IMG/VR virus record: IMGVR_UViG_3300046048_000769
Length of the DNA: 36,343 bases
Strand: one strand, 5' to 3'
Origin: a virus
The notes under the pieces are model-generated. The model was given only the letters and a program-made list of their open reading frames with translations, made no database searches and had not been told where the DNA came from. The stretch's first letter is position 1; each line of letters begins with the position of its first letter. Positions 32,157-33,894 of this stretch are shown here, piece by piece. A program made the position numbers and the translations under genes.

Positions 32157-32273
32157 AGTTGACGGAGGGAATCGAACCCACCCTTGCCTGCGGACCTGGA
32201 ACCATCCATTTCGGGAATCGAACCCGACTGGCCTCCCTCTCCGGGAGCCGTGCGACCACTACACTACGTCAAC
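32157..32273 (-). tRNA. degenerate tRNA-like element with an internally duplicated T-arm (possible pseudo-tRNA or tRNA with non-canonical insertion)
   Basis: Revcomp: acceptor GTTGACG ... CGTCAAC (perfect 7 bp), D-arm GTGT-AGTGGTC-GCAC, no canonical 7-nt anticodon loop (CTCCC-GGAGA-GGGAG hairpin instead). Two T-arm-like copies (TCGGG-TTCGATT-CCCGA and GTGGG-TTCGATT-CCCTC) lie 46 nt apart. Confidence 0.35.
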
Positions 32274-32587
32274 ATCGAAGGCGACCATTCCGAATCAATA
32301 TCTCTCTTGGGAAATTCGACCAGAACGTGTCCTTCAAGCCAACAACGAAGTTCATCATTGAATTCAGCCACGCAATTATACGCCCCTGATACGTTCGTTT
32401 CTTTCAGTTCTCGATTGAACGGATATTTCCGCCACAAAATATCCAAATGATAAAACAAATCTCCAGGTGGTATCTGCTGAAACGGAACGCCATTCTTGGG
32501 CGATTCCTCTTTCCACGGCAATTTGGACCTGCCGAAAATATCAACTCTTGATGGAATCTTGCCGCGATTCTGTCCACTCATCGTCAA
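32264..32587 (-). CDS. W-tag family small protein (C-terminal ...KRDIDSEWSPSMLT)
   Basis: ORF. Motif lies at the C-terminus. Confidence 0.5.
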   Translation of the reverse strand: MTMSGQNRGKIPSRVDIFGRSKLPWKEESPKNGVPFQQIPPGDLFYHLDILWRKYPFNRELKETNVSGAYNCVAEFNDELRCWLEGHVLVEFPKRDIDSEWSPSMLT

Positions 32588-32822
32588 TACACCTGTACTT
32601 GGGTCGCGGCCCCATAAGCTCTTTCATACGATCCAGTGCTTCTACGCCCGCTGTATCAAAAAAGCAATTGGCCATGATGTCGTCTGATTTAGCCATGATA
32701 GCATCGACTATTTTCTTGTGCATAGCAGGACCAACGCTCAATATTCTTGGCTCGTATCCCCCTTTTCCATCGCTGACGTTGCAGTTGAACAAGTATCGCT
32801 TGTGGCCTGAAGGATTTTCCAT
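32541..32822 (-). CDS. W-tag family small protein (C-terminal ...KYRCIDDEWTESRQDSIKS)
   Basis: ORF. KYR-x-IDD-x-WT-x-S is identical in pattern to the 2491..2733 tail. Confidence 0.5.
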   Translation of the reverse strand: MENPSGHKRYLFNCNVSDGKGGYEPRILSVGPAMHKKIVDAIMAKSDDIMANCFFDTAGVEALDRMKELMGPRPKYRCIDDEWTESRQDSIKS

Positions 32823-33079
32823 TCTTTGAACTCCTTTTTGTCCTGCTCGTCAACCAGCCACTCTTTGTAATAATGATGTAATCTCGAACCCAAAAAAGCA
32901 ATAATAGCAGTTGTGGAAACGATAATCGCCATAGTCTGATCTCGCCAACAAGTGGCAGCGATGAACATGCTGCCCAAGACCAACCCTAAACAGCGAGTGA
33001 CAAATATATCAGAAAAAACAAATTTAAGTATGTTCATCATAATCTCCCGCTGTGGTAATCGCTCCATTGTGCTTCCCAA
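32738..33079 (-). CDS. small membrane protein (2 TM)
   Basis: Hydrophobic segments. Overlaps the next ORF start, so the boundaries are uncertain. Confidence 0.4.
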   Translation of the reverse strand: MGSTMERLPQREIMMNILKFVFSDIFVTRCLGLVLGSMFIAATCWRDQTMAIIVSTTAIIAFLGSRLHHYYKEWLVDEQDKKEFKEWKILQATSDTCSTATSAMEKGDTSQEY

Positions 33080-33396
33080 AAATCATGATGATCTTCGGCA
33101 CAAGCTCTGCACAAAAAAACAGAACGATTCGGATTTTCACCTTTACCGTCCCAATGATACATCGTTCGTGAATCTTCTAACTCGACGCCTTCTTTGTTGC
33201 CACACCTTTCACAAACATTTGGGTCCATGTCATGAACCATATGCTCGATGCTACCCTTGGAAGGCTCCCATTCTTCATCAATAGATCGAATTCTTTTACT
33301 TGGTTTGTGACGATCAGAATCAGTTAAAGGTCGGCTTCCGACGACTTTTGACCTGATTCCTCGTCCTGACTTTGCTGCCATTTCGATGGCTCCCAT
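33037..33396 (-). CDS. W-tag motif (RIRSIDEEWEPSKGS) followed in frame by a Zn-ribbon domain (CERC ... CRAC)
   Basis: ORF. Here the motif lies N-terminal to the Cys-rich domain, and the ORF's 5' end overlaps the preceding ORF's 3' end in another frame. Confidence 0.4.
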   Translation of the reverse strand: MGAIEMAAKSGRGIRSKVVGSRPLTDSDRHKPSKRIRSIDEEWEPSKGSIEHMVHDMDPNVCERCGNKEGVELEDSRTMYHWDGKGENPNRSVFLCRACAEDHHDFWEAQWSDYHSGRL

Positions 33397-33584
33397 TCGC
33401 TGTCTATATCTCTTGGGTCTGGATGTTCAAAGAGTTCCATTGACTCGAAAGTACATGCATCTGGAGCCTCCCACTTATTCAGAAAGTCTTCCAAATCCCG
33501 GATAATTCGGTCTGTGTTATCACTCGACATCGACAAGAGACTGCTTCCATAAATCATCAATTTCGCGGCGGTCTGATCCGCCAA
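33324..33584 (-). CDS. W-tag family small protein (PRDIDSEWEPSKW plus 20-aa acidic tail)
   Basis: ORF. The motif is near the C-terminus. Confidence 0.45.
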   Translation of the reverse strand: MADQTAAKLMIYGSSLLSMSSDNTDRIIRDLEDFLNKWEAPDACTFESMELFEHPDPRDIDSEWEPSKWQQSQDEESGQKSSEADL

Positions 33585-33894
33585 ATCCCGTTACCTTGCC
33601 GTGGCCCTCATCGAGCATCTTCATCACGGCCATCAATATTCCAGTGGTCAACCCTTTGTTGCCCGTGTTACTTGTTATACCCCAAGAATCGTCGGAAAGC
33701 TGCAAGCCGATCACAATGCGATATTCGTCCTGTTCATTCGCGGGTGTTTCATCTACGCCACGACCGATACAGCAATCCTGGATATACGTGCCGACCAAAT
33801 CAGCCACAACCTCGGTCTTTGCATTGGTCTTTATCCGAAACTCTTTCGGAGTATCCAACGGATAGTAAATTTCCATCACAATATCAGGAGTCAT
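33520..33894 (-). CDS. W-tag family protein (C-terminal ...SDRREIDDLWKQSLVDVE)
   Basis: ORF. Variant motif R-E-IDDLW-KQS. Confidence 0.5.
   Translation of the reverse strand: MTPDIVMEIYYPLDTPKEFRIKTNAKTEVVADLVGTYIQDCCIGRGVDETPANEQDEYRIVIGLQLSDDSWGITSNTGNKGLTTGILMAVMKMLDEGHGKVTGFGGSDRREIDDLWKQSLVDVE

Follow-up and report, generated by a model that had tools for sequence, protein, structure and literature searches.

A recurrent peptide tag on small proteins of a huge T4-like phage, including fragments of the major capsid protein

Short terminal peptides that target or dock proteins are already known as a kind. Encapsulin cargo-loading peptides and the C-termini of scaffolding proteins (P22, herpesvirus) are short, usually C-terminal peptides that dock inside an HK97-fold shell, and the tip of the SSB C-terminus and the clamp-binding peptides place a terminal acidic-aromatic motif after basic residues, common to many partners of one hub. 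In phage T4, whose capsid is of the gp23 type, internal proteins are sent to the scaffolding core of the prohead by a capsid-targeting sequence, the CTS (PMC3012670). Here we describe the W-tag, a short peptide shared by a set of small open reading frames (ORFs) in a 36,343-nucleotide stretch of viral DNA (IMG/VR record IMGVR_UViG_3300046048_000769; the whole stretch is called the window), several of which carry segments of a gp23-type major capsid protein (MCP).

Like the W-tag, the T4 CTS (on IPI, IPII, IPIII and Alt) is a short terminal peptide and the sole common feature of diverse, fast-evolving small phage proteins. It differs in being N-terminal, about 10 residues long and terminated by the gp21 cleavage site [L/I]-x-E, whereas the W-tag is mostly C-terminal, has another sequence and shows no evident cleavage site; the W-tag thus shares with the CTS a terminal peptide on unrelated small proteins, but neither the N-terminal position nor [L/I]-x-E. 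The encapsulin, P22 and herpesvirus peptides have no sequence similarity to the W-tag, the shell gene here would be a genuine phage MCP, and a cargo that includes fragments of the shell protein is without precedent in the encapsulin and scaffolding systems. The hub-docking tails of the SSB and clamp-binding type follow another consensus, and nothing ties the tagged genes to replication; the C-terminal tail of RB69 polymerase is a clamp-binding peptide that the tag may resemble. Because no Pfam, NCBIfam (curated sorting-signal models of the CTERM type included) or PHROG family covers the tag, a PDB search with it returned a chance heptapeptide as its sole match, and literature searches found no description of the tag, of capsid-fragment mini-proteins or of capsid-fragment decoys, the motif, its cargo and the family of mini-gp23 proteins described below appear to be undescribed.

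The W-tag and its carriers

Scanning the window in all six frames for [RK]-x-I-D-x-x-W-x-x-S (regular expression [RK].ID..W..S), we found 10 matches exclusively on the minus, coding strand and 0 on the plus strand (Ile codons at 2526, 2759, 31996, 32299, 32588, 33282, 33407, 33561, 34895 and 35364), compared with 0.011 predicted by composition and a maximum of 1 in 2000 residue shuffles. In a broader consensus, the core reads [Y/W/F]-R-x-I-D-[D/E/S]-x-W-x-[P/Q]-S and the linker before it is basic or proline-rich. Tags are 12-16 residues long, and many are preceded by a Lys-rich stretch with extra Trp residues. There is also a minimal short form, [W/Y/F/H]-R-S-I-D-D-(D/E)-COOH, which lacks the Trp of the long form and stops right at the C-terminus. 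An earlier note on this DNA had reported five adjacent tagged ORFs at 32264-33894 and a further pair on each side (2491-2963 and 34860-35562); all nine are borne out by the six-frame scan (D to H, A and B, I and J, respectively), and to these we add ORF C (31928-32128) and ORF K (1566-2024, with a truncated tag), which that list had missed. The tagged ORFs of the window are as follows.

ORF K, 1566..2024, minus strand: 152 aa; N-terminal transmembrane helix and coiled-coil-like body (by sequence reading); truncated tag FRSIDDQ-stop, codons 1569-1589
ORF B, 2491..2727, minus strand: 78 aa, mini-gp23; LLENQ propeptide motif, Gol-region segment FKRISLPLIRRIYPQLI, tag YRTIDDSWTPSK (~2500-2535)
ORF A, 2724..2963, minus strand: 79 aa, mini-gp23; segment ITLPNVRKVYPPLLANNIVSVQPL...YYLKYRYSS, then tag RRSIDDPWTPSS (~2733-2768)
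ORF C, 31928..32128, minus strand: 66 aa; tag RRNIDSEWKQSKWEDDQ (~31970-32005)
ORF D, 32264..32587, minus strand: 107 aa; C-terminal tag KRDIDSEWSPSM (~32273-32308)
ORF E, 32541..32822, minus strand: 93 aa; C-terminal tag KYRCIDDEWTESR (~32562-32597)
ORF F, 33037..33396, minus strand: ~114-119 aa; N-proximal tag RIRSIDEEWEPSK (~33256-33291), then a zinc-ribbon-like body
ORF G, 33324..33584, minus strand: 68-86 aa; tag PRDIDSEWEPSKW (~33381-33416), then an acidic tail of 24 residues
ORF H, 33520..33894, minus strand: 124 aa; small alpha/beta domain, flexible linker, tag RREIDDLWKQS (~33535-33570)
ORF I, 34860..35324, minus strand: 154 aa; ribbon-helix-helix (RHH)-like N-terminus, MCP C-terminal segment (EVTPVVLDPGTFKPRRG), tag VRNIDQPWEQSK (~34869-34904)
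ORF J, 35317..35562, minus strand: 40-81 aa depending on start codon; tag FRTIDANWTPSK (~35338-35373); overlaps the 3' end of an RNase H gene

The codons of the tag vary throughout (Arg as CGC, CGG, CGA, CGT, AGA or AGG; Ile as ATT, ATC or ATA; Asp as GAC or GAT; Ser as TCC, TCG or TCT). In 10 ortholog pairs with two related metagenomic contigs, L001 and L029 (contigs and loci carry L numbers here, single proteins P numbers), the R, I, D and S positions show 20 synonymous and 1 non-synonymous differences, and the x positions change freely. Because of this synonymous variation, which extends to CGN versus AGR codons for Arg, and because of the 20:1 ratio among orthologs, selection acts on the peptide and not on a DNA or RNA element, in agreement with what the earlier note had proposed from synonymous codons. 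The shuffles, the codon analysis and the ortholog substitutions together lead us to reject a chance motif or a DNA or RNA repeat, and we give this explanation, or one based on wrong ORF boundaries, virtually no weight: some tagged ORFs are indeed short with weak codon-usage scores, and A, B and J are uncalled in the annotation of one assembly, but the excess is confined to the coding strand, third codon positions vary, and the tag is kept across genomes of 46-56% GC.

The individual tags are also conserved in identifiable orthologs. Those of ORF C (P0004, P0006, P0010 and L001) retain RRDIDSEWKQSKWEDDQ, those of ORF G (P0007, P0008, P0009 and L001) retain RDIDSEWEPSKW, and the L001 ortholog of ORF D (61% identity over 110 aa) retains KRDIDSEWSASK; ORF E likewise has an ortholog in L001, ORFs A and B have theirs in L029, and the L001 ortholog of ORF I has retained both the MCP segment and the tag. 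Orthologs of ORF K, which lie after PTH2, end in FRSIDDE (L029), WRSIDDK (L034), WRYIDEE (L032), HRSIDDE (L002) and FRSIDDE (L026), so that the short form is kept in six genomes including the window, though the L002 and L026 orthologs are only 26-32% identical. The long form is expanded in the window and L001, with 7-10 copies per 20-36 kb, and L002 and L026 have five to six tagged proteins of long or short form per 20 kb. ORF J is the weakest member, with no ortholog in L001 and no call in the Logan assembly.

Beyond these relatives the motif is uncommon. A first DNA-pattern scan of IMG/VR gave 22 single-hit loci compared with ~20 expected by chance for the pattern, and among these only L011, where a peptide rescan found a second tag, looked real. 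A second pattern scan of IMG/VR gave a few contigs with many copies, among them the 532,729-bp IMGVR_UViG_3300049215_000771 with 9 strict matches at 8 separate loci, where a looser peptide rescan added several further tags, short forms included. In a database of 5.8e9 proteins, a profile built from the motif alone passed orthologs and two mini-gp23 proteins and nothing else. The search of related metagenomic phages that the earlier note had suggested located the tag in, among others, L001, L002, L026, L029, L032, L034, L011 and IMGVR_UViG_3300049215_000771. A phage sequence from GenBank, LR756511, was set aside as a tagged relative, having matched only through an MCP-like Gol segment and carrying no tags.

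The tag does not behave as part of any one protein. About 90% of tags are C-terminal, the position that the earlier note had given for all of them, and end 9-17 codons before the stop codon (full range 8-30 codons). In ORF F, however, 81 residues follow an N-proximal tag, and the L001 ortholog begins MVRRSIDDEWKPSK, so 'C-terminal' is not valid for every copy. N-terminal tags followed by 80-100 residues are found in ORF F, its L001 ortholog, L060, P0018 and P0033. Homologous bodies can be tagged at opposite ends: in ORF E the tag is C-terminal, and in its L060 homolog (body E = 6e-9) it lies on the N-terminal side. Close homologs of ORF H are tagged, and its distant homologs P0201 and P0202 (39-43% identity) end without the tag. 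AlphaFold2 gave no globular fold for ORF B (predicted TM-score, pTM, 0.24) and a confident small alpha/beta domain for ORF H (pTM 0.73), where the tag forms a low-confidence terminal helix in the tail. The varied location, the gain and loss among homologs, the existence of a short form and the predicted tail context together point to a portable short linear motif on a flexible terminus.

Such a motif is very probably a docking site for one common partner, with the tag on its flexible tail recruiting a set of small proteins to it; the tagging of homologous bodies at opposite ends and its loss from distant homologs bear out the earlier note's comparison with docking and cargo tags on diverse small proteins. 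The small orphan genes of huge phages number in the hundreds and offer no route to a function; a shared, portable tag would place a dozen or more of them per genome in a single pathway and give a direct experimental handle on it.

The body of ORF F matches phrog_12292 (E = 1e-18, profile positions 65-131), the RHH reading of the ORF I N-terminus is based on a sub-threshold NikA-like Pfam match, ORF C has no Pfam or PHROG match, and ORFs D, E, H and K have no match in the GenBank phage collection. In the body of ORF H (residues 1-98) an invariant SNTGNKGLTTGI motif stands out; this body has no structural neighbour in BFVD or the PDB and no family match. Small tagged genes are easily overlooked by gene finders: JGI gene calls include B (P0002), C, E, G and H, whereas a separate annotation of Logan contigs with the identical sequence leaves 2443-2964 and 35325-35494 empty, so that A, B and J are missed. 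Stop-codon recoding was considered and dropped, since code 11 leaves the large genes uninterrupted and tags are followed by a mixture of TAA, TAG and TGA.

Capsid-protein fragments among the tagged proteins

The earlier note had described the bodies of the tagged proteins as otherwise unrelated, apart from the 2491/2724 paralog pair. For D, E, G, H and K, Pfam, PHROG and MCP comparisons detect no relation to structural proteins, but A, B and I contain MCP segments. ORF A matches Pfam PF07068 Gp23 over positions 9-48 of 376 (E = 5.6e-10, 39.6 bits, cutoff 24.4) and residues 62-102 of the L011 MCP (E = 7e-17), and ORF B matches residues 39-75 of the same MCP (E = 1e-10), such that the two together correspond to L011 MCP residues 39-102 and Pfam Gp23 positions 1-49. 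In ORF I, the segment between the RHH-like N-terminus and the tag matches residues 436-465 (E = 2.9e-5). The same is seen on other contigs: two tagged ORFs of L011 correspond to Pfam Gp23 positions 301-348 and 129-189 (62 and 49 bits), tagged ORFs in L049 and L056 match Pfam Gp23 with 35 and 48 bits, and those of IMGVR_UViG_3300049215_000771 and the separate contig L067 match L011 MCP residues 259-312, 320-370, 396-448, 412-450 and 440-465. Tagged ORFs of L046 and L067, moreover, match the C-terminus of an L011 protein whose gene lies upstream of the scaffold-like gene and the MCP gene. The tag is therefore associated with the phage capsid, its cargo including fragments of a gp23-type MCP and of another head-module protein.

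That second protein (L011 1-1965, >654 aa) ends in W-P-x-L-x-N-P-Y-V-P repeats, a motif that recurs in the tagged mini-proteins of L046 and L067. It has no Pfam or PHROG match, and naming it a portal would therefore be unfounded.

Each Pfam Gp23 match spans 40-60 of the 376 positions, far from coverage of the full HK97-fold domain. This partial coverage, together with the lack of a globular AlphaFold2 fold for ORF B, argues that the tagged MCP-like proteins are fragments and not capsid proteins. Nor are they pieces of a split gene: A and B overlap, the order of the segments is scrambled in L011 and the window, and L011 has an intact MCP as well, which rules out a split or scrambled MCP gene, an intron, an intein or joining by bypass.

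A profile search of 1.84e9 representative proteins gave 97 matches and revealed a family of 57-135 aa mini-gp23 proteins with the architecture FKRISIPLVRRIYPQLIANKIVSVQPL..., basic linker, tag, of which ~31 clusters carry the W-tag. In a further 17 clusters the W-tag is replaced by a second C-terminal tag, (K)VDWKKEGF-COOH, as listed here.

VDWKKEGF-tagged mini-gp23 proteins: P0054, P0055, P0058, P0061, P0065, P0067-P0069, P0071, P0072, P0079, P0081-P0083, P0087, P0098, P0102; locus L042 10001-10231

The L042 gene with this second (EGF) tag is 4 kb away from a head module that is intact (a portal-size gene, an S77 protease, a scaffold-like gene and the MCP); over L011 and L042, mini-MCP genes are 4-5 kb from the head module. 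No spread of the EGF tag to other L042 proteins was found, mini-gp23 alone carrying it. P0034, P0044, P0094 and P0099 have RWKVQDRWKY-like Trp/basic modules.

The segment common to the mini-gp23 proteins is the most conserved part of gp23 and is homologous to the T4 Gol region, which binds EF-Tu domains II/III and activates the Lit protease (reviewed in PMC3014915). ORFs A and B reproduce the LLENQ motif and this segment, and their tag is spaced as the extreme N-terminal motif of gp23 is; they differ from T4 gp23 in that mini-gp23s are free-standing proteins and the tag is usually at the end opposite to the MCP motif. This link to capsid fragments was unexpected: a widespread and undescribed family retains the very portion of gp23 that, in T4, interacts with EF-Tu, triggers the abortive-infection protease Lit and adjoins the GroEL-targeting propeptide.

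Candidate partners of the tag

Full-length MCPs of a broad group begin MNANAKFLNEAREIEAQWAKTGLLEGI..., with N-termini ...NEAREIEAQWAKTGLL, and their motif R-x-[I/L]-E-x-x-W-x-x-T (R-E-[I/L]-E-x-x-W-x-K-T) has the same spacing as R-x-I-D-x-x-W-x-x-S in the tag. Instances of the N-terminal motif are KAELLNKWKP in T-even phages (verified) and AREIEAQWAKT in the present lineage; the T-even gp23 start MTIKTKAELLNKWKP was verified at >=99%. Profile comparison by hhalign weakly aligned the tag to the MCP propeptide motif in the predicted register (P = 0.016), with a probability of 2.8% over 11 columns. Judged by eye, VDWKKEGF fits the C-terminal half of the MCP motif, W-x-K-x-G-[L/F]. In P0018 and P0033 the tag lies N-terminal to the Gol segment, the natural order in the MCP, and P0073 and P0101 have both the MCP motif and the tag. 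As many tagged bodies are segments of head proteins and the tag shares the spacing of the propeptide motif, we infer that the tag mimics the MCP propeptide.

In T4, the N-terminal part of gp23 lies inside the unexpanded head, or prohead, probably contacting the scaffolding core (PMC9546572); the gp23 N-terminus targets fusion proteins to GroEL, and the T4 internal proteins share only the capsid-targeting sequence (PMC3012670). Whichever component normally recognises the MCP propeptide would also read the tag, the likeliest candidate being the prohead scaffolding core or the protease and the next a GroEL-type chaperonin. With the core or the protease as reader, the tagged set would be incorporated into assembling proheads, or attached to them, and would serve as internal proteins or modulate assembly, comparable to proteins bearing the T4 CTS or encapsulin cargo-loading peptides. 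We hold such propeptide mimicry, bringing cargo to a head-assembly partner, as a tentative proposal with less than even chances. A more specific form of it, which we put forward with slightly greater reserve, is that the propeptide motif has been turned into a general address label, borne by a dispersed library of mini-proteins that nearly tile MCP segments and include another head protein, and read by one partner at the assembly stage. Such a label would amount to encapsulin-like cargo loading, or to assembly-coupled regulation or decoys, within a virus capsid, and if it loads cargo into proheads it would offer a natural packaging signal for phage engineering. If the tagged proteins instead serve as decoys or regulators made from the epitopes of structural proteins, they would represent a new viral strategy.

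Several observations weigh against delivery to the prohead. The likeness between tag and propeptide is weak by the hhalign figures given above and is a post hoc observation. The T4 CTS is N-terminal with a protease site; most W-tags sit at the other end, and reading of the sequences reveals no conserved [L/I]-x-E beside them. Nor is there an evident reason for a phage to direct pieces of its MCP into its own prohead. In the huge phages, tagged genes sit among translation genes (MetRS, PTH2, RF-1) and outside the head module; the T4-type late promoter TATAAATA was not found in the window; and head modules from six GTDB metagenome-assembled-genome contigs are without tags, though those phages may lie outside the tagged lineage.

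Readings that dispense with the prohead draw on part of this evidence. An unlikely one is that the mini-proteins are decoys or adaptors with a degron, showing head epitopes to immune sensors or competing phages while the tag recruits a protease or effector or shortens the life of the decoy. Their bodies are the MCP segments of highest conservation, among them the Gol region, which Lit senses via EF-Tu (PMC3014915), and part of a second protein of the head module; the genes occupy early-type regions rich in accessory genes, in a window lacking the late promoter; and the tag is terminal, its short form lying exactly at the C-terminus as in many degrons. However, one would expect a Lit-type sensor to respond to a free Gol-like peptide with activation, not to be blocked by it; the bodies of D, E, G, H and K have no detectable relation to structural proteins, the tag is unlike known bacterial degrons such as LAA-COOH, its long form needs no free C-terminus, and the literature searches turned up no capsid-fragment decoys. 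Still less probable, in our estimate, is that the tag anchors its carriers to the ribosome, to EF-Tu or to a translation factor of the phage, with mini-gp23 binding EF-Tu through its Gol-like segment and something else through the tag while the phage takes over translation. This would fit the binding of the T4 Gol region to EF-Tu domains II/III (PMC3014915), the Lys-rich stretch with extra Trp before many tags, the presence of SmpB, RRF, PTH2 and three aminoacyl-tRNA synthetases (aaRS) in the window, and the synteny seen in the window, L002, L026, L029, L032 and L034, where a mini-gp23 pair, or a mini-gp23 and a tagged protein, is followed by PTH2, tagged K and HNH and, further on, by RF-1, next to MetRS. 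That synteny is possibly just inherited, though, and outside the huge-phage lineage (L011, L042) the tagged or mini-MCP genes are not beside translation genes; further tagged bodies consist of parts of the MCP that are not known to be linked to EF-Tu, and the acidic core of the tag is unlike a nucleic-acid-binding motif.

The earlier note had raised a third destination, suggesting, on a par with docking to another hub protein or a proteolysis signal, that the tag might load cargo into a vault-like shell formed by a homolog of the major vault protein (MVP) encoded on the minus strand of the same window (7382-10138). This protein of 918 aa has an MVP shoulder domain (E = 1.3e-23) and weakly matches vault repeats. 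Known vault cargo uses an INT domain of ~150 aa and not a peptide, and Pfam scans of the window proteins detected no INT domain. The MVP protein is conserved in the closest relatives L029, L030 and L034, and the large expansion of the long tag occurs in the window and in L001, which comes from the same assembly as the MVP-bearing L030. It is missing between the cpYpsA and DUF2934 genes of L032, however, and was not seen in the fetched 11-20 kb of the tagged L032, L026 and L002, the syntenic site included, nor in the fetched part of the small T4-like contig L011, although in those genomes it could lie elsewhere. Since the tag is also present in relatives that lack MVP at the syntenic position, the vault link is unsupported, and we consider it improbable; because the cargo bodies point to the phage capsid, the HK97-fold prohead is a better candidate than the vault if the tag targets a shell at all. 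No encapsulin gene was found in the window, and the HK97-fold proteins of related contigs are gp23-type MCPs beside scaffold-like genes (with a prohead-protease gene too in L042). An IMG/VR search for relatives of the window MVP protein found none; a vault-protein homolog in a phage is of interest in its own right. More improbable still would be a nascent-peptide signal acting in cis, by stalling, termination control or bypassing, to regulate the tightly coupled gene that follows, in a genome that encodes many factors for termination and rescue. The near-terminal position of most tags would suit this, as would start codons that by our reading often follow 14-26 nt past the Trp codon, a GGGAG box made by the W-E codons, PTH2, RF-1, SmpB and RRF encoded nearby, and what we take to be a loose likeness to the T4 gene-60 nascent peptide (KKYK...RRSI). 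Against it stand the N-terminal tags, a distance to the stop codon that is not fixed, a short form that reaches the stop codon without the Trp, and MCP fragments that are not colinear, which would make their joining by bypass senseless.

Genome context and neighbouring features

The window has 47.8% GC, with all long ORFs on the minus strand. It encodes MetRS (by inspection; orthologs carry tRNA-synt_1g), a class I aaRS of Ile/Val type, a class II aaRS, SmpB, RRF and PTH2, together with an HNH endonuclease, an RNase H-like protein, a 2OG-Fe(II) oxygenase, a cpYpsA protein and two tRNAs, a gene content that is that of a huge phage. Syntenic relatives lie on contigs of 72-390 kb, and contigs of up to 673 kb in the protein index carry one of the mini-gp23 proteins. 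A strongly conserved block that marks the lineage (MetRS, small ORFs, mini-gp23, PTH2, K, HNH, in some cases an aaRS, RF-1, RlaP, dTDP-sugar isomerase, methyltransferase, glycosyltransferase) is found at 1-5900 of the window and in L002, L026, L029, L032 and L034, on contigs of 46-56% GC. The GenBank phage collection contains no member of the lineage, the window MetRS being at most 38% identical to its entries.

At two tags, the W-E codons TGG GAG create a GGGAG Shine-Dalgarno-like box 7-11 nt before the next ATG (33381-33396, from G to F; 34867-34885, from I to a 63-aa ORF). Given this placement just upstream of a start codon, the tag codons may also serve as the ribosome-binding site for the gene that follows.

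Between D and C, ~120 nt of the minus strand (32140-32262) contain two GGTTCGATTCC T-loop-like boxes. The stretch is uncalled by ARAGORN and has no Rfam match even at E<=1. L001 lacks it at the corresponding position, with ~40 nt between its D and C orthologs. A tRNA-like element, or what is left of a tRNA, is a possible identity. At 3753-3837 on the minus strand, ARAGORN calls a 'tRNA-???' with the four-base anticodon gaaa (Rfam tRNA, 49 bits), which could be a frameshift-suppressor-type or otherwise unusual tRNA.

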